From positions 1 through 14,442 of the forward strand of contig JAEOTX010000175.1 in the NCBI GenBank assembly GCA_016839605.1: 14,442 bases of DNA, written 5' to 3'. Both the position numbers and the translations under genes were made by a program. Source of the DNA: Candidatus Thorarchaeota archaeon. Its GTDB lineage: Archaea > Asgardarchaeota > Thorarchaeia > Thorarchaeales > Thorarchaeaceae. This document shows, piece after piece, positions 2,927 to 12,771 of the stretch. Position 1 is the first letter of the stretch. Each line of letters starts with the position of its first letter. Under the pieces are notes generated by a model that was not told the DNA's origin, did no database searches, and saw only the letters and a program-made list of their open reading frames with translations.

Positions 2927-3313
2927 CTACTCTTCTGGTTTAGTCCACTTCCATGCATACCAAACGATCAGTGCACAGAACACAACATACCCAATTCCCA
3001 TTATGTTTTCATACAAGGGTCTTGGCATGATGAATCCGATGCCATCAATAACGATGAAGACTATGGCTATGATGATGTTTGCCCAACGATTCGCTTTGTA
3101 GGGCAACTCCAAGGACAGGAAAACCATGAAGATTGGTGCTAGCATCATTATGGCAAAAACAGCCAACATTTCCTCAGTAAGTGGCACATCTAGGGTTCCC
3201 GCTATGATATCCTCTAGCATTCCAGGCTCCAAAAACCGTATGACATCACCCTGAAGGCTAGTTAGCATGCGAGCTATCCATAGTACTGAGAGTTTCTTCT
3301 TGATATCTTCCAC
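2927..3313 (-). CDS. DUF6326-like small 4-TM membrane protein
   Basis: LSxLW...M....GDV N-terminal pattern, M..PI.MVFL.L.LP, NRW.NI and terminal W.AW.W. GTG start with a GGTGA RBS 7 nt upstream. Clear paralog of 11440-11823. Family name is from recall, not from a search. Confidence 0.8.
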   Translation of the reverse strand: MEDIKKKLSVLWIARMLTSLQGDVIRFLEPGMLEDIIAGTLDVPLTEEMLAVFAIMMLAPIFMVFLSLELPYKANRWANIIIAIVFIVIDGIGFIMPRPLYENIMGIGYVVFCALIVWYAWKWTKPEE

Positions 3314-3357: not shown

Positions 3358-3462
3358 GGGGTTATGTGCGGTCTCTTGTAGAATATGAGTCTTGACAAGA
3401 ATACCCCCACGTCAGAAGATTGGGGATGTGGTCATAATCGTTGAGTAAAGAGGAGAAATGAC

Positions 3463-4545
3463 ATGGATATCGTTCTGTTATTCATCATTGGTATACCAGG
3501 CTTCTTTCTACTTCTGCTTATTGGCTTGTTGCTGTATAAACAATATTTGAGATATTCGACAAGAATAGAAACACCAAATGGAATAAGCTCATTGGAAGAG
3601 ATTACGCTTGGAGATTTGAAGCAGTGGATCCTCATCAGAGGTATGGATCAAAACAACCCAGTCCTAATGTTCTTACATGGTGGGCCTGGCGAACCAGCAG
3701 TGGGTATGTCAAGTTCCCGAAGATTAGATGCTGAATTAATTAAACATTTCACAGTAGTGCATTGGGACCAACGAGGAGGAGGGAAGTCATATAATACCAG
3801 TATCCCAGTTGATTCAATGACACTAGACAGACTAGTTGAAGATTGTAATGAGTTAATTGACCATTTACGAAATAGGTTTGACACACCTCGAGTCTTCATT
3901 GTCGCGCATTCATCAGGAACGTTGATCGGAATTAAAACTGCTCATAAATATCCAGGAAAAATACATGCCTATGTCGGAGTAGCGCAAATTATCAACGACT
4001 GTGAGCATGAGAGAATGAACTATGATTTTGTAGTTGAAGAAGCTGAACGATCTGGTAATGTAAAACATCAAATTGCGATAAAAGCAATTGGACCTCCACC
4101 TTATGAAACCCCCAAGAAATTATTCGAGAAAGCCAAGTATATTGTTCGATATGGAGGAATGATGGTAGATTCTTCCTTTAGGAAAATGATAGGTATTATA
4201 CTACCCTATTTGACATCACCTGAATATACATTGTCAGAAGGAATTAGAACGATATTGGGGAGGGGACGTAATTTCACTACGAACGCTTTGTGGAACGAAA
4301 TAATAGTTGTCAATTTTACAAAAGAGATAGAATCGATAAGAGTCCCCATTTACTTCTTTGAGGGCAAATATGATATGATTACTCCCACAGTTGTTGTTGA
4401 GGACTTCTACAAGAGCCTAGATGCTGAAAAGGGAAAGACACTTGTCATTTTTGAAAACTCGGGACACTGGCCAATGTTAGAAGAAAAGGAGAAGTACGAG
4501 GACATATTGGTAAACGTAGTTTTGAAAGAAAGTCAGAGTAAATAA
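3463..4545 (+). CDS. Membrane-anchored alpha/beta hydrolase (proline iminopeptidase-like family)
   Basis: N-terminal TM helix, LHGGPG, WDQRGGGKS, nucleophile elbow AHSSG, acid in GKYDMITP, His in SGHWP. GAGGAG RBS. Confidence 0.9.
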   Translation: MDIVLLFIIGIPGFFLLLLIGLLLYKQYLRYSTRIETPNGISSLEEITLGDLKQWILIRGMDQNNPVLMFLHGGPGEPAVGMSSSRRLDAELIKHFTVVHWDQRGGGKSYNTSIPVDSMTLDRLVEDCNELIDHLRNRFDTPRVFIVAHSSGTLIGIKTAHKYPGKIHAYVGVAQIINDCEHERMNYDFVVEEAERSGNVKHQIAIKAIGPPPYETPKKLFEKAKYIVRYGGMMVDSSFRKMIGIILPYLTSPEYTLSEGIRTILGRGRNFTTNALWNEIIVVNFTKEIESIRVPIYFFEGKYDMITPTVVVEDFYKSLDAEKGKTLVIFENSGHWPMLEEKEKYEDILVNVVLKESQSK

Positions 4546-4593: not shown

Positions 4594-4610
4594 GTTCTGA
4601 TAATTTGAAT

Positions 4611-4731
4611 ATTCAACCTAATGAATTTTTAATAAGGAAGACTTGACTCTTCGTAAGCTTGATAGTACATTGAAAATAGGGGCATAATTATGGAAACAAG
4701 TGAGTCTACTGAATCAAGCGATCCGCTTTTC
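4611..4731 (+). repeat. Direct repeat 1, left copy: diverged duplicate of the promoter and 5' end of the 798-aa gene
   Basis: Ungapped alignment to 5926-6046, 96/121 identical by hand count. Weaker similarity extends back to 4598/5913. Confidence 0.9.
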
Positions 4732-4926: not shown

Positions 4927-5829
4927 TTGGCAGTAGAACTAATCTCCAAGAAATATCGCGAACTATACGCTTTCGCAATTGTAGTCGGACTCTTTCTCTT
5001 GATAGGGCTTTTCTACATCAATGCATGGGATCTATCCGCCCTCATTTCCACTGACTACATGGTCTTTCTCTTTTCTATGTCAGGTGTAACAATGAAGGTG
5101 CTTAGTGGAATTGGGATAATGCTGACCTATGCTTCTTTGTGTAGGTTTGCTTTGAGTATATTTTCAGATGGAATGAAAGGAAATCCATCTTTTGCTAGAA
5201 GAATAAAATTAGCGCTCCTGATACCGGTCGTAGTTCTTGTTGCATATGGAATATCCAAGATCGTAGGAGTGTCCATTTCAGGTGGGGGTACTATTGATTT
5301 GCTAATCACAATCTATGGTATCTGGTCTTTGATGCTATCTCTCTATGTATTTCCTGCTATCCAAGGAAGATATCAGCCTGAATACAAGAAGTCTAGGAGA
5401 GACGAAATTCAGAAACGATTTGGCGATGCAAAATTCTCGCTCTGGAGAGGTTATCAGACCCGAGTGCACAAGGAGTATGGTAAGGTATATGCAAAAGAGT
5501 TTGAAAGGTATGGAGAGAGATTGGACTACCTTCGAGCTCAACTCAGTGGAGTCATGCTTCTTCCATTAGGTATAGCATTGATCGTACTTCCTCCAATTCT
5601 TTTACCTCTGATTGTGCTTTGGCTGCGTTCTTTCACCTTACGCAGGAAGCCGTTGAGCCCATTTGAGAGGATATTCCTAGCTATAATGGCAATAGGAATA
5701 ATGCTGTTGAGTACATTAATATTCTTGATATTAGACGTAGCAGTAACACAGATACTCCTTGATACCGTCTATGGTCTGGGAATTCTCACTAGTATCATTG
5801 TCCTCGGATATATTGTGATATCTTCCTGA
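4927..5829 (+). CDS. Uncharacterised polytopic membrane protein (300 aa) with a basic soluble loop
   Basis: About 7-8 hydrophobic segments with a charged loop (YQPEYKKSRRDEIQKRF...). TTG start, GAGGAG at 4912-4917, TTATAAG at 4861-4867. Confidence 0.8.
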   Translation: MAVELISKKYRELYAFAIVVGLFLLIGLFYINAWDLSALISTDYMVFLFSMSGVTMKVLSGIGIMLTYASLCRFALSIFSDGMKGNPSFARRIKLALLIPVVVLVAYGISKIVGVSISGGGTIDLLITIYGIWSLMLSLYVFPAIQGRYQPEYKKSRRDEIQKRFGDAKFSLWRGYQTRVHKEYGKVYAKEFERYGERLDYLRAQLSGVMLLPLGIALIVLPPILLPLIVLWLRSFTLRRKPLSPFERIFLAIMAIGIMLLSTLIFLILDVAVTQILLDTVYGLGILTSIIVLGYIVISS

Positions 5830-5925
5830 TTGCTAGCTATGCCTACACCTAAGGTCTCTTGAGAATGGACATGTCCTAGGAAAGGTTGTCATTACAGTGG
5901 AACATGATTGATTGATGATTTGGCC

Positions 5926-6046
5926 ATTCAACCTTATGACTTTATAATCGGGAAGACTTGACTCTTTCTTAGCTTCATGATGGAGAGAAATCAGGTGTGT
6001 GATTATAGTAACAAGTGACTCTACTGAATCAAGCGATCCGTTTTTC
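5926..6046 (+). repeat. Direct repeat 1, right copy: working promoter, RBS and 5' end of the 798-aa gene
   Basis: Aligns to 4611-4731. Contains TTTATAAT (5941-5948) and AGGTG (5993-5997). Confidence 0.9.
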
Positions 6047-8395
6047 GCCGAACCATATGTAGATGTCGATGAATGGCGGGACGAACCCGTACGCCATCGG
6101 TATGTCCATGGCGGTTTCAAAGGTACTGATGCCCGGTTCTCGATCCACTTCCCACCCAAGGAGCAATACGATGGCCGGTTCTTCCAGTACATCCAACCAA
6201 TATCGGGAGACGAGTATACTGCACAGACACCGGGGGCTTATACATCAAGCTACTCGATAGGCTTTGCTATCGATAGCGGCGGCTATCTTGTGATATCAAA
6301 CCTGGGGAGGATGGACATGTTCACTGGCGATGATCCCACTATCCCGGGGTATCGGACCAGTGCTGCAGTGGCGAAGTATTCGCGAGTGTTGGCCTCTGAA
6401 ATGTATGGCGACCACCGTCCCTATGGTTATGCTTGGGGCGGAAGTGGTGGGGCATATAAGACCATCAGCTGCATAGAGAACACAGAGGGCGTCTGGGATG
6501 GTGTTGTGCCATTTGTACACGCGACACCAATCAGCATACCCTACAATTTCTCAGTACAGGCTCATGCGATGCGTGTGCTGGAAGATAAGATTCCCGCCAT
6601 CGTCGATGCTGTGGAGCCTGGCGGTAGCGGAGATATGTATGCTGACCTAAATGATGAGGAACGAGCAGCGCTCATGGAAGTGACTAAGATGGGATTTCCG
6701 CCAAGCGCTTGGTTCCATTACAGGATGATTGCTTTCGGCTACACAGGGGTCTTAACCACCCTATTTGACCAAATCATCAAGACTGACCCAACCTATGTTG
6801 AAGACTTTTGGAAAGTGCCAGGTTACCTTGGCGCTGACCCGCCTGAATCACTCCTACGCCGTCGGATAAACCATGAAACAACCATCAGCAAACTGATGAT
6901 GCCTAGTGAATTGAGGGAAATGGGCATTCCAGTAGCGTATTCAGCAGATGCTGCGAGTGACATAGAACCCCCGGCAGCGTTCATAATGGAGAATCTGCCT
7001 GAGGGTGACCTACAGGGAGCTTCAGTATTCCTGAGAAGCGGTGATGCTGAGGGCTGTGTGCTTTACATTGCTGGAGCTTTCGATAATATGGTCATGATTG
7101 CCTTCGGTCAGGATAACTTTCGACGGATGGTTGATATTAAGGTCGGTGATAAAGTAGAGATTGACAACTCTGTGTATCTCGCTTTTCAAACCTATCATCG
7201 TCACCAGAATCCACCACCTGAATACTATGTCTTTGATCAGTTTCGCGACGCCGATGGCAACCCATTGTATCCACAGCGACCCGAGATGTTCAAAGCTGAA
7301 ACGGGCGCGGGCTCAATTCAAACAGGTCGGTTTACTGGCAAGATGATCGTAGTACAGAATTTGATGGACGAAATCGCTTATGCTTGGCAGGCTGACTGGT
7401 ATCGCTCGAAGGTGAAAGACGCTTTGGGTGAGCAGTTCGAGGATAACTACCGTCTCTGGTTTGTCGACAATGCATTGCACACTCCACCAGTAGTCACGCC
7501 ACTTGACTCCCCGCCTGTCGTAACTACTCATGTCATCAACTACGGTGGCGTCTTGCAGCAAGCGTTACGTGATTTGAGCGCGTGGGTTGAAAGAAGCGAA
7601 GCGCCTCCTGCTAGCACACCATACAAAGTTGCTGAGGGCCAAGTGGAAGTTCCTCATAAGGCTTCAGATCGCAAGGGAGTGCAACCAGTAATCACAGTCA
7701 CTGCAAATGGGAGAGAACGAGCAGAGGTCAAAGTCGGGAAGAAGGTGAAATTCTCAGCGGTCATCGATGCACCGCCAGATGCTGGTACAATAGTCGGTGT
7801 GGAATGGGATTTCGAGGGTAATGGCGATTATCCGGTAGTCCAGAAGCTAAAGGACCCTAAGAAGAGCAGTGTGAAAGTGAAGACAGATTACACTTTCTCT
7901 GGGAGTGGTACATACTTCCCAGCGATTCGAGCAACATTGCATCGGAACGGTGATCCTGAAACTCCCTATGCAAGAGTCCAGAACATTGGTCGTGTGAGGG
8001 TGGTTGTGGAAGGCAAGAAGAAGGCGGAGGATGGCAAGGAAATAATCTTTGAGATGAAGAAACTGCCATCCGATTTCGGAGAGTTCATGGACAAGCTGGT
8101 GGATAAGATTGTACAACGAACCACTGTTGAGCAGGGTGTAGAAATCTCCACCATTGAAATAGGACCAAGAACTGGTCGTTCAACAAAGTTCCAACTTGAT
8201 CCCTCCACTCCGATCAATACTATCTATACATTAAGTTTCGAAGATATGGAGACAGGTATCGGAGTCTTCTTGAACCTTGATGTGGAGGTTTCGGGAGCCT
8301 ACAGATTAGCGAAGAAGACTATCCAGAAGGCGATTGCGAAACGTGTTGCTGAAAATGCGATAGAATTAATCACTGAAATCTTGGAGGGGCCCTGA
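5999..8395 (+). CDS. Tannase/feruloyl-esterase-like alpha/beta hydrolase with a PKD-like domain and an extra C-terminal domain (798 aa)
   Basis: Nucleophile elbow YAWGGSGGAYKT, candidate acid in QNLMDE and His in DNALH, PKD-type WDFEGNGDY..YTFS.SGTY near the end, then a ~128-aa extension after RVRVVV. Exact start uncertain (GTG 5999 or ATA 6005). Confidence 0.75.
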   Translation: MIIVTSDSTESSDPFFAEPYVDVDEWRDEPVRHRYVHGGFKGTDARFSIHFPPKEQYDGRFFQYIQPISGDEYTAQTPGAYTSSYSIGFAIDSGGYLVISNLGRMDMFTGDDPTIPGYRTSAAVAKYSRVLASEMYGDHRPYGYAWGGSGGAYKTISCIENTEGVWDGVVPFVHATPISIPYNFSVQAHAMRVLEDKIPAIVDAVEPGGSGDMYADLNDEERAALMEVTKMGFPPSAWFHYRMIAFGYTGVLTTLFDQIIKTDPTYVEDFWKVPGYLGADPPESLLRRRINHETTISKLMMPSELREMGIPVAYSADAASDIEPPAAFIMENLPEGDLQGASVFLRSGDAEGCVLYIAGAFDNMVMIAFGQDNFRRMVDIKVGDKVEIDNSVYLAFQTYHRHQNPPPEYYVFDQFRDADGNPLYPQRPEMFKAETGAGSIQTGRFTGKMIVVQNLMDEIAYAWQADWYRSKVKDALGEQFEDNYRLWFVDNALHTPPVVTPLDSPPVVTTHVINYGGVLQQALRDLSAWVERSEAPPASTPYKVAEGQVEVPHKASDRKGVQPVITVTANGRERAEVKVGKKVKFSAVIDAPPDAGTIVGVEWDFEGNGDYPVVQKLKDPKKSSVKVKTDYTFSGSGTYFPAIRATLHRNGDPETPYARVQNIGRVRVVVEGKKKAEDGKEIIFEMKKLPSDFGEFMDKLVDKIVQRTTVEQGVEISTIEIGPRTGRSTKFQLDPSTPINTIYTLSFEDMETGIGVFLNLDVEVSGAYRLAKKTIQKAIAKRVAENAIELITEILEGP

Positions 8396-8443
8396 ACCAC
8401 TAATCTATTGCCCAAAAGACAAGAAATCATCATCAATCATCGT
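8370..8443 (+). repeat. Direct repeat 2, left copy: true 3' end of the 798-aa gene plus a duplicate carboxylesterase 3' end
   Basis: 69/74 identical to 9512-9585; the last 42 bp (8402-8443) are identical. The minus strand of 8405-8443 reads TMIDDDFLSFGQ*. Confidence 0.95.
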
Positions 8444-9367
8444 TCACTCTTGGCAGTTCGTCTCATGAGAGGTATCCATCTTGTCGTTGATCTCGTTCAC
8501 GGCCTCCTCGAGATCATCGGCTGTCCGCATTGAGGTGGCTGTCGGGACGCTCGTAGTGACGAAGTGTTGCGCGTACGGGAAGCACGCTACCTCGAACGGC
8601 GCCGGGTCCAGTGCGCCAGCGCCGAAGGTGTTGGTGCACAGCGAGATATCATCGAGAGGGAGTTTCAGCGCCTGCGCCATCTCCTTCGGATCGAACACCA
8701 GACTGAACGGCTTGGTGCATTGCTGCAGCTCACCGCCGTAGTCGACTGAGAGATTGCCCTCGACCCACAGGCGCTGATTGAGTTCAGTTAGCACACCATT
8801 CTTCATGTCGGCGACTAAGACGAGGCTGTTGTCAGACTGCGCGCTCGCAACATCAATGATGATCTCTCCGAGATAAGATGTCGTGACTACCGAATGCGAC
8901 GTACTTGGACCGATGAAGCCCTGGCTCGGGTCGTAGCTATGCGTGTTGCTCTCATACTCAATGATGACCCATGAGAGAAGGCCCGTTTCGCAGTTCTCAG
9001 CAATCAGATAATATTCCACGCGGCTCCCCCAAAACACGCTCGTGTGTACGTTGAAGGCGCCAACGATCGCGCACAGTCGCTTGGGAGTATCGCTGAACAT
9101 CCCCGAAGGGAACAAGCTGTAGTTCGGCGGCAACAACCGCTCGACCGTTTCAGTATCGGTGACCTCAAAGGCAAGGAACACACTGTACGGTTCAACGATG
9201 AAGCTCATGTACGGATTGGAGCGCGCCCCTCTTTTGACGATGTACCGCTGGAGTCTGAGCGGCAGCTTGCGGAGAAAGCCACTACCCTGGGTCGTGGACG
9301 CAACCTTGGCAGGCACGACCATCTTCTCGGTAGTCTTGATATAACGTCGAAGATCCTTGACTTTCAT
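8444..9367 (-). CDS. GC-rich hypothetical protein (307 aa), possibly acetoacetate-decarboxylase-like fold
   Basis: Long ORF with a GTGAGGAG RBS before the ATG. The VERLLPPNYSL segment followed by beta-rich stretches recalls ADC/DUF2071-type proteins (weak). GC about 57-62% in two 60-nt spot counts. Confidence 0.75.
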   Translation of the reverse strand: MKVKDLRRYIKTTEKMVVPAKVASTTQGSGFLRKLPLRLQRYIVKRGARSNPYMSFIVEPYSVFLAFEVTDTETVERLLPPNYSLFPSGMFSDTPKRLCAIVGAFNVHTSVFWGSRVEYYLIAENCETGLLSWVIIEYESNTHSYDPSQGFIGPSTSHSVVTTSYLGEIIIDVASAQSDNSLVLVADMKNGVLTELNQRLWVEGNLSVDYGGELQQCTKPFSLVFDPKEMAQALKLPLDDISLCTNTFGAGALDPAPFEVACFPYAQHFVTTSVPTATSMRTADDLEEAVNEINDKMDTSHETNCQE

Positions 9368-9467
9368 GACATCTCCTCACATTAACGTTTCATGATACTT
9401 CTGTTTCTCTTTCAGCACATCAGAACTATTGACTTCCATGAATCCACACTCTATACCTTTCTCGCGG

Positions 9468-9509
9468 CATATCAAACTACCCACTACCTTCATATCAAAC
9501 TACCCACTA
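9468..9509. repeat. Tandem perfect 19-bp repeat (period 23)
   Basis: CATATCAAACTACCCACTA at 9468-9486 and 9491-9509, separated by CCTT. Confidence 0.95.
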
Positions 9510-9511
9510 AC

Positions 9512-9585
9512 TCACTGAAATCTTGGAGAGGACCTAAATCACCAATCTATTGCCCAAAAGACAAGAAATCATCATCAATCATCGT
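9512..9585 (+). repeat. Direct repeat 2, right copy: orphan 3' end of the 798-aa gene plus the true carboxylesterase 3' end
   Basis: Plus strand reads TEILERT* (versus TEILEGP* at 8372-8395); 69/74 identical to 8370-8443. Confidence 0.95.
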
Positions 9586-11271
9586 CAGCACTAATCCTCG
9601 CTCAGGCTCCTCAAGCTCAGTATTCACGAGATTGACTACATCTTTTGTGGCTATCTTTTCCTTCAAGTAGGATATTCGAAGATCATCGAGGCCTGCATCT
9701 AGTACGATAACCTTATCGACTCCTTCAGTGTTATCCCAGACAGGCCAATGAGGCAAGTCATCATGGTTAGGATTTCCTGTTCTCGCAAAATTCGCCAGAT
9801 AGCTCATGCATAGATCAGTCAGTTTCTCACGGCCAGGTTTGTTGCGTTTGTTGTGTGTTTTTCCTGTCAGCAGTGCTATGTCACCTCCACCCATTCCCAA
9901 AAAGAAAGGAATCTCAGCTGCATGATGTGCTCCCAGTTCTCGTCCCTTCTTCCCTGGAAGAACGCTCTCACCATGTTCATCTACACTTCCCCAATCGAAC
10001 CTATACACATAGACAGGTGCATCACTGCCAGAGGTCATCTTTATGGCCAATTCATCAACACCATTTGCACGCCATAGCATTGAGAAGTATCTCCAGACAA
10101 GATCATATTCTCGGGTGTTCAATGGCGGATTCTTTCTGAACCATCCAAAGAGCTTCATTTCATCCTTTGTGCAACCAATGATTACTGGAACTTCATTGGC
10201 CCACTCCTCGGATGAAAAGATGTCATAGCCCTCCTTTGGAATCACGGTTCCATCAGCAAAAATAGTCCGCCATGCTGCCATTCCAAAATCCCTGGTTGGG
10301 ATGTTCTTCATGATTGTGAAAGCAGATTTCGATCGAAGATATTCGTCAATCTCATCATCTTGCATCTTGCTGATGACCTGCTTAGCCTCTTCTACATCCC
10401 CAGCTCTTCGGTCCTTCACCAAGAGGGCCGCGAGAAGATTGTCGCTCTGGCTTTTCGCCTCCTCAGGACTCCAGATAAATGATAGACCACTCTCTACAAC
10501 TGCGCGGCGAAAGAGCCCCTTTGCACGGTGAGAAGCTAGGAGTGAAAGTACATTGAAGGCCCCTCCAGATTCCCCAGCTACTGTTACGTTGTTTGGATCA
10601 CCGCCAAAAGCTCCGATGCTGTCCCGCACCCACTCCAAAGCCTTTACTAAGTCAAGAGTCCCATAATTCCCGCTCTGGTCTTCCGGAGAACCAGTGCCTG
10701 TTACTGCTGGATGGATAAACCAGCCCATTGCACCTAGGCGGTAGTTGACTGAAACGTACAACATGTTTGATTTCTCAACCACAGCATTCCCATTGTAGGA
10801 TGATGTGGCGGATGACCCAATGGAATTCCCTCCTCCATGTATATACATGTAAACCGGTAACTCTGTTTCTGTACTCTTGGGGCGCCAGATATTGAGGTAG
10901 AGACAGTCTTCCGACCCACCTGGACCAAGAAACATCATTATTTGTGCTGCTGAACTCCCAAACTTCTTTGCCTTACGTATGCCGAGCCATGGAATAGGAT
11001 CAAGTGGTGCTTTCCACCGTAGTGGTCCTTCGGGGGGAGCGGCATACGGAATTCCTTTCCAACACCAAGTGCCTTTGTCAGAGAAACCCTCTACTATGCC
11101 ATATTTGGTTTGAACAACTGAATCATTCTTCCACATTCCGATTTCATAGAGGTGTTCTGAGGGTTCCGGCTCGAAAAGTCGTTTTGTGCTTTGAGATACA
11201 ATTCTCTTGACAGAAAGTAGTATCTTTATAATCGGGGAGAATAGCTTTCCTAATTGCATGAGTCGTGACAC
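9547..11271 (-). CDS. Type-B carboxylesterase (COesterase family, p-nitrobenzyl esterase-like)
   Basis: WKGIPYAAPP.G.LRWKAP, SEDCLYLNIW, YIHGGG, NYRLG, FGGDPNNVTVAGESGG nucleophile, TKDE acid, GAHHAAEIPF His, NFARTGNPN. GTG start. Confidence 0.95.
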   Translation of the reverse strand: MSRLMQLGKLFSPIIKILLSVKRIVSQSTKRLFEPEPSEHLYEIGMWKNDSVVQTKYGIVEGFSDKGTWCWKGIPYAAPPEGPLRWKAPLDPIPWLGIRKAKKFGSSAAQIMMFLGPGGSEDCLYLNIWRPKSTETELPVYMYIHGGGNSIGSSATSSYNGNAVVEKSNMLYVSVNYRLGAMGWFIHPAVTGTGSPEDQSGNYGTLDLVKALEWVRDSIGAFGGDPNNVTVAGESGGAFNVLSLLASHRAKGLFRRAVVESGLSFIWSPEEAKSQSDNLLAALLVKDRRAGDVEEAKQVISKMQDDEIDEYLRSKSAFTIMKNIPTRDFGMAAWRTIFADGTVIPKEGYDIFSSEEWANEVPVIIGCTKDEMKLFGWFRKNPPLNTREYDLVWRYFSMLWRANGVDELAIKMTSGSDAPVYVYRFDWGSVDEHGESVLPGKKGRELGAHHAAEIPFFLGMGGGDIALLTGKTHNKRNKPGREKLTDLCMSYLANFARTGNPNHDDLPHWPVWDNTEGVDKVIVLDAGLDDLRISYLKEKIATKDVVNLVNTELEEPERGLVLTMIDDDFLSFGQ

Positions 11272-11439
11272 TGTTTCACACCAGAATGGGTTATTCTATA
11301 GTCAGAATCAAAACAGATTCTCTCAGAAATATCTGTTCTTCTTCTGTACTTGATGATTGCAGAAGCATTGGAGCATTGATAGACTCTTTGGCAGTTGCTT
11401 TATTTCAGTGTGTCATAAAAGCCAGACTGTGACAGAATC

Positions 11440-11823
11440 ATGGAAGACGTTCAGATTATTCTATCAGCGTTATGGGTTTCTCTGATGTTGACCTATCTCT
11501 TGGGAGACGTTATTCGAATCTTTGGCGGTGACTTCGTAGCAGGAGAAATGTCAGGTCAAAAAGCAACTCAAGCGATGTGGATGGGAGCAGCATTATTCAT
11601 GCTAATACCAATTGTTATGGTGTTCTTGGTCCTAGTTCTACCAAATCCAATTAATGGCTGGCTAAACATCATCTCAGCGGTGTTCCTTTTCCTATTCAAC
11701 CTCGCAGGGGTGCGTTCATACCCAGGTCTTTACGACAGGTTTCTGATAGTTGTTGGTCTTGTGTTCAATGTAGTGACTGTTTGGTTTGCATGGAATTGGA
11801 TCTTTGTAGTTAGCCCCACCTGA
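11440..11823 (+). CDS. DUF6326-like small 4-TM membrane protein (second paralog)
   Basis: LSALWVSLMLTYLLGDVIR, MLIPIVMVFLVLVLP, NGWLNII, VWFAWNW. Aligns end to end with 2927-3313. Confidence 0.82.
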   Translation: MEDVQIILSALWVSLMLTYLLGDVIRIFGGDFVAGEMSGQKATQAMWMGAALFMLIPIVMVFLVLVLPNPINGWLNIISAVFLFLFNLAGVRSYPGLYDRFLIVVGLVFNVVTVWFAWNWIFVVSPT

Positions 11824-11872: not shown

Positions 11873-12205
11873 TCAGAATATCTTGGTAAGGTAATACTCC
11901 TTGACATCATTCGGATACGCGTCCGAAGAACCAAGAATTTCGTACCCCTGACTCTTCAAGAACTCCAGATTCTGGAATGAGAAACAAGCAACCTGTCCTG
12001 CTATGCATCTCCTTTCCTTAGCAAGAGTTTCAGCATACATCAATAGATCCTTTCCATATCCCAAGCCACGATGTGCCTCATCGACCCAGAATTCGGCTAT
12101 GTTCAATATCCCAAGTGTTGTATATCCACTTATTCCTCCAATCACTTCTCCATCGTCACTTTTTATCACCGAACAATAGTCGGTATGCGGGTGTTCCTTC
12201 AGAAA
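11873..12205 (-). CDS. Second GNAT acetyltransferase domain: C-terminal part of a frameshifted two-domain GNAT gene
   Basis: GEVIGGI and WVDEAHRGLGYGKDLL acetyl-CoA motif. The frame is open upstream of GTG 12169 back to the A9 run (FLKEHPHTDYCSVIK). The first strand and helix of this domain are encoded at the end of the 12199-12771 ORF. Confidence 0.8.
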   Translation of the reverse strand, partial: FLKEHPHTDYCSVIKSDDGEVIGGISGYTTLGILNIAEFWVDEAHRGLGYGKDLLMYAETLAKERRCIAGQVACFSFQNLEFLKSQGYEILGSSDAYPNDVKEYYLTKIF

Positions 12206-12771
12206 TTTTTTTTTGCATGCTTGTCAAAGTTCCTACCAAGCCCAGCACGAACCGTTTTAATCTCTTCTTCTGAGGGGTCTGATGTGATTGCAAACCGGTC
12301 TGGGCCTGCCTTTGGAGTTATCCTATCATCTAAAGAGTCGAGGCGGGTCATCAAGACATGTTCTTTAATCCCACTATGATAGCCATCATAGGTCACAATG
12401 AGGTCGTAACCAACAGCCTGATAGAACTCAGGTGCTTGCCATGAGAATGTGTAGACATGGGATGAGATGCACCCTATCTCCTTTGCCAATTTCTGCGCCT
12501 CTATGACGAGGTCTCTTCCATATCCTAGTCCTCGATGCTTTTCATCGACCCAGAGTACCTCAAGATATTGAGTCCAGTAGAGCGTACTCGTGAGGATGCC
12601 ACCAATGACTTCACCCTCTTTATTCTTCAAGATCAGATTGTGCCAGGGTTGCGGGCTGTCGAACTCCCTATTGGTCTTCTCCATGTTGTAAGACTCCAGT
12701 CCTTGCTGAAACTTCTTCACCTCTTCATCAGTCGGGTCGCTTACAACTGCATATCGATTTGATTTACTCAT
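12199..12771 (-). CDS. GNAT N-acetyltransferase: first domain plus the start of the second, stopping just after an A9 run
   Basis: LWVDEKHRGLGYGRDLV and TFSWQAPEFYQAVGY. Internal repeat RYAVVSDPTDEEVK / RFAITSDPSEEEIK. Strong GAGGAGGT RBS. Confidence 0.88.
   Translation of the reverse strand: MSKSNRYAVVSDPTDEEVKKFQQGLESYNMEKTNREFDSPQPWHNLILKNKEGEVIGGILTSTLYWTQYLEVLWVDEKHRGLGYGRDLVIEAQKLAKEIGCISSHVYTFSWQAPEFYQAVGYDLIVTYDGYHSGIKEHVLMTRLDSLDDRITPKAGPDRFAITSDPSEEEIKTVRAGLGRNFDKHAKKNF
12205..12214 (-). other. A9 homopolymer / slippery heptamer A AAA AAT joining the two GNAT ORFs in the -1 frame
   Basis: Minus strand reads CAT GCA AAA AAA AAT TTC TGA; the -1 frame continues TTT CTG AAG GAA CAC to the stop at 11873. 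Confidence 0.8.

Follow-up and report, generated by a model that had tools for sequence, protein, structure and literature searches.

How can a foreign gene come to stand between two convergent genes that lie only 9 bp apart and leave both of them complete? The question is raised by a 14,442-nucleotide stretch of Candidatus Thorarchaeota DNA (contig JAEOTX010000175.1 of assembly GCA_016839605.1), which was analysed at its full length and is called the window here. Within it, a gene for a 798-aa protein and a carboxylesterase gene converge on a 307-aa open reading frame (ORF), hereafter the cargo, which is enclosed by two copies of a 74-bp direct repeat. We found that a 1,068-bp copy of a single-gene unit, the cargo with its own upstream region, has been placed at the 9-bp tail-to-tail junction of the two genes. 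The unit appears to have been circulating among Thor-type archaea already, after a recent transfer from bacteria. Because 74 bp of the target were copied, both neighbours retain complete 3' ends. We consider it probable that the scar stems from one illegitimate insertion event, mediated by the host and belonging to the class known as "insertion with long target duplication".

Results

Anatomy of the insertion

The window is contig C112 of a metagenome-assembled genome (MAG; G000, 3.08 Mb in 259 contigs, 80% complete, 4.6% contamination), and 40 related genomes were searched for comparison (41 were counted for presence of the cargo). The parts of the locus are as follows.

5999..8395, plus strand: 798-aa gene, the left neighbour (ORF), with its last 26 nt inside the left repeat copy
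8370..8443, no strand: left repeat copy, made of the functional end of the 798-aa gene (8370-8395), the 9-bp gap (8396-8404) and an esterase relic (8405-8443)
8433..8443, no strand: 11-bp junction microhomology, TCAATCATCGT on the plus strand, shared by the native 3' flank of the cargo unit and the esterase codons T-M-I-D
8444..9367, minus strand: cargo ORF, 307 aa, predicted acetoacetate-decarboxylase (ADC)-like fold, no Pfam family, bacterial type
9368..9511, minus strand: cargo upstream region, which travelled with the cargo in Thor-type genomes (alignment, BLAST boundaries)
9512..9585, no strand: right repeat copy, made of a relic of the 798-aa gene end with a TAA stop (9512-9537), the gap, and the esterase end that is in use (9547-9585)
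9547..11271, minus strand: carboxylesterase gene (PF00135, E 1.3e-88), the right neighbour, in the same orientation as the cargo and upstream of it

The two repeat copies are identical at 69 of 74 positions (93%) and are spaced 1,142 bp. A BLAST comparison of one flank against the other recovers the repeat (E 6e-27), which occurs only in these two copies in the 3.08-Mb assembly. The left copy holds the final 8 codons and the TGA of the 798-aa ORF, and beyond the gap the remains of the carboxylesterase stop plus 12 codons. Enclosed between the copies is the 1,068-bp segment, that is, the 307-aa ORF and 144 bp upstream of it. In this upstream region a GGAGG-like motif precedes the ATG; the region also has a tandem pair of 23-bp repeats (9468-9489, 9491-9512), and the end of the insert coincides with the edge of this pair. 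On the other side, the cargo stop codon (8444-8446, minus strand) directly adjoins the left repeat. Depending on whether the 11 shared bases are assigned to the target or to the insert, the duplication measures 74 or 63 bp. An earlier note on this DNA had given the same coordinates and the same anatomy (end of the 798-aa gene, 9-bp gap, esterase end), the cargo stop abutting the repeat without a spacer and a stop retained in both 798-end copies (TGA left, TAA right), all of which we recovered from the sequence and its ORFs. Its remark that 74 bp is far more than the target duplication of an insertion sequence (IS) is supported as well.

The empty site and inheritance of the insertion

Collapsing the repeats gives a natural tail-to-tail pair, as the earlier note had proposed, and exactly this arrangement exists in relatives. 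In G015:C72 (L054), G005:C17 (L055) and G020:C20 the 798-aa gene and the esterase gene stand tail to tail around a single 70-74-bp stretch that can be aligned to both window copies. The 798-aa gene of G015:C72 has 91.5% nucleotide identity to that of the window. By protein search, orthologues of the 798-aa protein were found in seven of the 40 relatives, five of these of the same genus (93% amino acid identity in G015; 79% in G005, G002 and G011); the protein itself matched no Pfam or NCBIfam family.

The occupied site was also found outside this assembly. Contig SMTZ1_10023912 (L067), which comes from another study, contains an exact 32-mer of the right junction and matches window positions 8773-11807 without gaps at 94.6%. 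Synonymous divergence (dS) between the two is 0.18 for the cargo and 0.14 for the esterase, and since both genes are equally diverged, the insertion is older than this 5% split and has been inherited. In Logan unitigs (k=31, four runs), which break at the 42-bp identical core of the repeat, the right junction (9312-9573) is covered in three runs. The insertion is real and inherited. At the left junction just 11 bp are common to the window and the other cargo locus, which excludes a k-mer chimera there.

A bacterial-type gene with a predicted ADC-like fold

The cargo ORF has a GC content of 55.6%, compared with 46.8% in the esterase gene, 49.3% in the 798-aa gene and 46.4% in the genome; at third codon positions (GC3) it reaches 71.8%, that is, 72% versus 44-50% in the neighbours. 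A GC contrast is thus real, as had been noted earlier, but it is smaller than the spot counts of 57-62% versus about 38% had suggested, and the lower figure belongs to one hydrolase only (360 aa, 3463-4545, 38.3% GC). Only two of the 41 genomes, G000 and G005, carry the cargo. Its more than 690 database relatives, mostly 79-88% identical, come from Thor-type archaea, Bathyarchaeia, Chloroflexota, Thermodesulfobacteriota, Actinomycetota/Coriobacteriia, Bacillota and a spirochaete. In a tree, the three Thor copies (window, L003 from Thor AB_25, and L004, the cargo locus of G005) form one clade (support 100/99) with Chloroflexota as nearest neighbours, so the closest relatives outside the Thor-type archaea are bacterial. 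The dS between the window copy and the Chloroflexota copies is 0.29-0.34, while the adjacent esterase differs by 0.69-0.72 between congeneric archaea. A cargo dS across domains of less than half the esterase dS between congeners argues for a recent cross-domain transfer. Together, GC3, patchy distribution and tree indicate that the cargo is foreign, of bacterial type and recently acquired, which agrees with the GC-rich foreign gene between convergent genes of the earlier note. Across its range, archaeal copies lie 10-19 GC points above their flanks, whereas Actinomycetota copies match theirs.

The cargo has no Pfam, NCBIfam or PDB sequence-profile match. An AlphaFold model built from a 38-sequence alignment reached a pLDDT of 93.5 (36 for the single-sequence model). 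Foldseek matched this model to 3c8w (E 1e-6), and VIA aligned it to the ADC fold with Z 15.0 (root-mean-square deviation 4.0 A over 204 residues; next unrelated fold, Z 5.6). In a protein language-model atlas, the look-alike clusters of the cargo carry PF06314. The model thus predicts an acetoacetate-decarboxylase-like (double-barrel ADC) fold, and not a recombinase. Residues 31-279 share this fold with the ADC-like superfamily (PF06314; PDB 3c8w, 3bgt, 4zbo, 4jmc and 5upb; Z 13.3-15.0). Unlike members of that superfamily, the cargo and the 38 family members have no PF06314 match at E up to 0.1, and the cargo has an additional N-terminal three-helix segment. F56, G114, R116, E118, N205 and F225 are invariant in the 38-sequence alignment. 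As no lysine is invariant among the aligned homologues, Schiff-base chemistry is doubtful, and the chemistry of the cargo may differ from that of true ADCs. The cargo belongs to an uncharacterised family of predicted ADC fold, and its passage between bacteria and archaea is recent enough for synonymous sites to be still unsaturated.

In Actinomycetota loci (L021-L039; for example L038 4888-5517 and L029 4912-5523), a GDSL lipase/acylhydrolase gene follows the ADC-fold gene and often overlaps it. In Thor-type genomes the ADC-fold gene adjoins an S33 hydrolase or a carboxylesterase gene. The ADC-fold gene may be functionally linked to ester or lipid metabolism. The spirochaete locus L037 holds two tandem ADC-fold paralogues.

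The insert matches a unit that resides elsewhere in Thor-type genomes

Across phyla, nucleotide homology of the cargo covers the ORF, about 10-17 bp upstream and 7 bp downstream. Within Thor-type genomes the common unit is longer and includes about 125-190 bp upstream, with the two 23-bp tandem repeats, and about 53 bp downstream. We found this unit in four further contexts. In G005 its neighbours are an S33 hydrolase gene on one side and, on the other, a pair of genes for a radical-SAM activase and a pyruvate formate-lyase (PFL). Contig C200 of the window's own bin has it beside a diverged hydrolase gene and breaks off within the cargo. Thor AB_25 carries it between pgk and an acyl-CoA synthetase-like gene, and the chromosome of Thorarchaeota bin27 (CP070761.1, L043) has a truncated form that adjoins a 3' relic of the 798-aa gene and the esterase gene. 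The order at the last site (L043 3535-4114) is the first 38 cargo codons, the cargo upstream flank, the last ~215 bp of the 798 homologue and the esterase gene; the remainder of the cargo and of the 798 homologue is missing, and glycine-cleavage P-protein genes follow.

Homology of the window to the units of C200, L004, L003 and L043 is limited to the stretch from 9511/9512 through 8433, and the other Thor units continue on both sides into flanks that are homologous among themselves. In the alignment, C200, L003 and L004 have the same 11 nt after the cargo stop, followed by a different, mutually homologous flank. These final 11 nt of the match, ACGATGATTGA in cargo sense, are at the same time the esterase codons T-M-I-D. 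One junction thus lies within 11 bp of common sequence, and the other has at most 1 bp in common. By this alignment the inserted segment appears to be a copy of a Thor-type unit residing in other contexts.

The ends of the unit are ragged. Its upstream boundary differs among the window, L004 and the pair L003/L043, and downstream it extends 11 bp in the window and about 53 bp elsewhere. In G005 the unit went in at the 3' end of the S33 hydrolase gene, and comparison with the empty site of G015 shows a target duplication of just about 10 bp. Entry in the last hydrolase codons gave this gene a new C-terminal tail (L055 ~15300-16600 versus L054 11940-12090).

We detected no terminal inverted repeats at the insert ends, no recombinase or nuclease family in any window ORF by family scans, and no further copies of the 23-bp tandem repeat or of the unit flanks in the genome. 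Around the 36 other cargo copies, flanking direct repeats were seen only in L007 (140 bp), L014 (32 bp) and L020 (27 bp), and they are therefore not a property of the cargo gene. Those of L007 (Anaerolineae) are 92% identical and lie about 460-600 bp on either side of the cargo; those of L014 (Bathyarchaeota) are 97% identical.

Divergence of the two repeat copies

All five mismatches (8387, 8390, 8394, 8397 and 8401) fall in the left 32 bp of the repeat, and the right 42 bp are identical. The earlier note had reported this pattern correctly, but its explanation, one crossover between two alleles involving a 1,142-bp circle, is not supported. After a single crossover between alleles that differ, one would expect mismatches to either side of the exchange point and not an identical right part, and each copy has its own derived changes. 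The outgroup states at the five positions are G, C, G, T, C in G015 and G, A, G, T, C in G005. Accordingly, the left copy is derived at 8397 and 8401, both within the gap, and the right copy at 9529, 9536 and probably, or perhaps, 9532. Unitigs of three runs retain G at 9529 and 9536, which makes both positions polymorphic, and L067 has other changes, again in the relic of the 798-aa gene end. The mismatches look like drift of non-functional relics on both copies. Identity of the right 42 bp is only mildly surprising and would reflect either chance or a short gene-conversion tract. Beyond the five positions, the esterase ends themselves vary as alleles: VLTMIDD in the window and L067, VLAMIND in G015 and G005, VLAML in L043 and VLASL in G020.

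Discussion

A probable mechanism

The absence of mobility machinery, a duplication length that varies (74 bp here, about 10 bp in G005) and repeats that are unique in the genome all support a single illegitimate insertion carried out by the host. The most likely course would be a replication or repair template switch that occurred twice. Synthesis would have run through the 798 tail and into the esterase end for 39 nt, jumped from there to the cargo locus by way of the 11 shared nt and, after 1,068 nt of that template, come back to the target at a point 74 nt behind the one where it had left. Fill-in of a staggered break that captured a fragment would give the same product and is not separable from a template switch. 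No element-encoded recombinase appears to have been involved. That the duplication covers both stops is probably a survivorship effect: two convergent genes just 9 bp apart leave no room for an insertion of another kind that spares the 3' ends of both.

Several observations weigh against this explanation. Template switching in these organisms would be known from nothing but the scar in the sequence. The left junction (8443/8444) is seen in the assembly only; an exact 35-mer across it is absent from a metagenome contig collection, which may omit records near the window's genome, and the k=31 unitigs give no phasing of the 42-bp core beside it. Under uniform drift, the chance that five mismatches all fall in 32 of 74 bp is (32/74)^5 = 0.015, so a further process may have been at work, for instance gene conversion or weaker constraint on the end of the 798-aa gene. 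Relative to G015/G005, bin27 and G020, the functional esterase end has derived bases in the 11-nt junction stretch (two changes in an Ala codon), and this stretch equals the cargo's native flank; the perfect 11-bp microhomology may thus stem from later conversion from left to right, rather than having caused the junction. Alternatively, the esterase of this lineage already had these 11 bases and the match guided the junction. In close kin without the insertion, an esterase end reading ACGATGATTGA would mean pre-existing microhomology and GCTATGATTAA later conversion from the left copy. Finally, the bin27 chromosome, with the cargo upstream flank beside the 798 3' relic and the esterase gene, could hint at local rearrangement or at targeting.

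If a recombinase-free route of this type exists, it might be a general one for the gain of foreign genes at tight gene junctions in Thor-type, and perhaps other, archaea, a proposal that we put forward only tentatively. A template-switch-like pathway of the host would then let bacterial genes enter without damage and leave datable scars, and the resulting repeats might permit later excision and spread.

Alternative explanations

Local rearrangement is an unlikely origin of the locus. It would start from an ancestor with the G005-like order of hydrolase, cargo, radical-SAM activase, PFL, 798-aa gene and esterase. A tandem duplication reaching from the cargo 3' flank to the esterase end through the 11-bp microhomology would be followed by deletion of most of the second copy, giving cargo upstream region, 74 bp and esterase, and by later loss of the first cargo copy. 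Tandem duplications typically have microhomology junctions, and in G005 the same 798-aa gene follows the cargo on the right at a distance of just about 5 kb. Both G015 and G005 have activase and PFL genes at this place, which are missing from the window, and the arrangement in bin27 resembles a deletion from a G005-like order. However, at least three steps are required, and G015, which has the closest 798-aa gene, is without cargo at either site (its hydrolase-activase gap is 43 bp). Thor cargo copies moreover differ by a dS of about 0.2 and host genes of G000 and G005 by about 0.7, so that the cargo has not come vertically from a G005-like ancestor.

Somewhat less probable still is a site-specific or nuclease-driven mobile cassette whose integrase or homing endonuclease is encoded at another place and acts in trans. 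Such a cassette would account for a unit that occurs in at least five Thor-type contexts, twice convergent to an S33 hydrolase gene and twice beside this esterase, and it would be analogous to the repeated gene-tail arrays on contigs C84, C102 and C24 of the same genome. Its mobilisation is hard to reconcile with ragged unit ends and with duplications as different as those of G005 and the window; a common target motif and inverted or attC-like ends are missing, and the window holds neither a nuclease nor a recombinase.

We give slightly less weight again to the circle of the earlier note, which would consist of the cargo unit and one 74-bp segment of another allele (1,142 bp), enter by a single homologous crossover and be re-excisable. 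Homologous excision and re-integration could indeed proceed between 74-bp direct repeats that have an identical core of 42 bp, and the k=31 unitigs fit the integrated form or an empty site plus circle alike. But besides the identical right part of the repeat, which a single crossover does not predict, both copies have private derived changes relative to the outgroups, two of those in the right copy being polymorphic. The donor-like 11 nt stand at the far right of the right copy, where a crossover inside the repeat does not reach. The circle would need both illegitimate junctions beforehand and explains nothing extra, and L067 shows the integrated form stably inherited.

An assembly artefact, in which two strains or loci with a common 42-bp core were threaded together, is very improbable: the completeness, contamination and fragmentation of the MAG, the second cargo copy at the end of contig C200 and the uneven unitig depth in run X2 (18x on the 798 side versus 50-63x at the cargo start and on the esterase side) would fit it, but the right junction is present in an independent assembly of another study and in unitigs of three runs, the left junction has only 11 bp in common with the C200-type locus, which is below any assembler k-mer, so that reads joining relic and cargo stop must exist, and ordinary 100-150-nt reads phase a 42-bp core.

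Comparison with known systems

"Insertion with long target duplication" goes back to Nobusato et al. 2000 (Gene 259:99), as cited in Furuta et al. 2010 (PMC2853133). The cases of Furuta, Abe and Kobayashi are restriction-modification (RM) genes in bacteria, for which DNA breakage by the RM enzymes themselves was suggested; no archaeal case survived their screen (PMC2853133). The mechanism of the scar is still unsettled. In the literature that we found, this scar is described for bacterial RM genes only, and the present case is archaeal and not RM-linked. Furuta et al. looked for direct repeats longer than 30 bp (here 74 bp, 69/74 identical), a relative with an empty site that can be aligned to both repeats (here G015:C72, G005:C17 and G020:C20), an insert shorter than 20 kb without a linked mobility gene (here 1,068 bp with one ADC-fold ORF) and a repeat that is not multi-copy (here two copies in 3.08 Mb). 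As in their cases, where start or stop codons often lie in the repeats, the repeats span translation stops of the neighbours, and their length varies from case to case. Their inserts carry RM genes, whereas the cargo has no RM domain, which places it with the same kind of scar outside the RM-linked subclass. The cargo is an enzyme with an ADC-like fold and not a nuclease, so this scar evidently needs neither an RM nuclease nor any other nuclease encoded by the inserted element, and the host is an Asgard archaeon. In contrast to the published cases, the donor copy is known here, and the microhomology at the junctions (11 bp, and at most 1 bp) can be read.

The proposed course resembles fork stalling and template switching/microhomology-mediated break-induced replication (FoSTeS/MMBIR) and class 2 templated sequence insertion polymorphisms, described in eukaryotes (PMC5110952). 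There, too, a distant locus is copied in with microhomology at the junction, and the target is duplicated where synthesis re-enters behind its departure. Those systems are eukaryotic, whereas in this archaeon the scar is what suggests the process.

Like integron cassettes (IntI/attC, including archaeal integrons), the insert is a single-gene, promoter-poor unit present in bacteria and archaea, and outside the Thor-type genomes its nucleotide homology stops a few bases beyond the ORF. It differs from them in having neither an attC-like imperfect inverted repeat nor a cassette array, and in flanking repeats that are copies of the target. The window contains no integrase or IntI gene; IntI was not searched for elsewhere in the genome.

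Three further classes of mobile element were considered and rejected as well. An IS or DNA transposon does not fit a locus without terminal inverted repeats or transposase and with a duplication of no fixed length (74 versus ~10 bp). A tyrosine- or serine-recombinase element (attL/attR) is contradicted by boundaries and flanks that differ among the window, C200, G005, L003 and L043, and there is no integrase gene. A homing endonuclease gene with 3'-end replacement is at odds with an inserted ORF of predicted ADC-like fold (Z 15.0) that has no nuclease match. Homing endonuclease genes with a replacement 3' end (mORFs of fungal mitochondria) do share with the window a decaying displaced gene end beyond the insert and a functional end that is kept; unlike there, the ends of both neighbours are duplicated here, as one block from the target itself.

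Recurrence in the genome

Self-comparison of the genome yielded 43 direct-repeat pairs of 35-400 bp spaced 0.3-6 kb, about nine of which are single pairs. One of them, G000:C248:17576-18676 (L068 1577-2677), encloses a 163-aa ORF between 100-bp repeats that are 93% identical; this insertion is present in G015:C29, and clean one-copy empty sites exist in G005:C89 and G011:C55. Within the window itself, the 134-bp repeat pair and the repeated dehydrogenase gene tail described below also bear on recurrence. As the genome has at least two cases besides the 74-bp duplication, the scar may be the trace of a host pathway by which gene-dense archaeal genomes commonly gain genes. The window holds an unusually complete record of gene fixation in an Asgard archaeon, with donor-type unit, empty site, both junctions and a diverged descendant.

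Repeat arrays of 3-9 copies (40-100 bp, 1-5 kb apart) are found on C84 (1229-15968), C20 (3079-14806), C102 (14914-16056), C24 and C244. The copies on C84 are a gene tail ending ...SSAYVPLK*, those on C20 are a GC-rich, partly palindromic motif, and the repeat of C102 is multi-copy in relatives.

Other features of the window

A second direct repeat of 134 nt (4598-4731 and 5913-6046, 78% identical) brackets a 300-aa ORF (4927-5829); its sequence comprises 86 bp of upstream DNA together with 16 codons from the start of the 798-aa gene. A 35-bp deletion that is absent from five relatives is common to the two copies, which makes the pair an in-lineage duplication. We considered whether the 134-bp and 74-bp pairs are the two ends of one replacement of the 798 allele; the common 35-bp deletion and the greater age of the longer pair (78% versus 93%) rule this out.

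The esterase alleles of G015 (L054) and G005 (L055) are near-identical, whereas their 798-aa genes have 91.5% and 77.6% identity, respectively, to that of the window. Between the window and G015, dS is 0.31 for the 798-aa gene and 0.69 for the esterase. Given this mismatch in divergence (G015 and G005 versus window 6014-11807), the tail-to-tail junction is also a boundary of allelic exchange among these species.

An Rfam scan matched no family anywhere in the window. The last 40 nt of its second alcohol dehydrogenase (ADH) gene (2885-2924) recur at 3408-3447 (85% identical) and weakly at 5865-5904; the former repeat lies beyond a 128-aa DUF6326 ORF (2927-3313, minus strand). As the ADH gene of G005 directly abuts the hydrolase gene, the second ADH gene and the DUF6326 ORF are extra in the window. 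Two DUF6326 paralogues stand 8 kb apart in inverted orientation (2927-3313, minus; 11440-11823, plus) and include a 42-nt inverted repeat of 81% identity (2944-2985 and 11759-11800). The adjacent ORFs 11873-12169 and 12199-12771 (minus strand) both match GNAT acetyltransferase domains, which fits a split two-domain GNAT protein.

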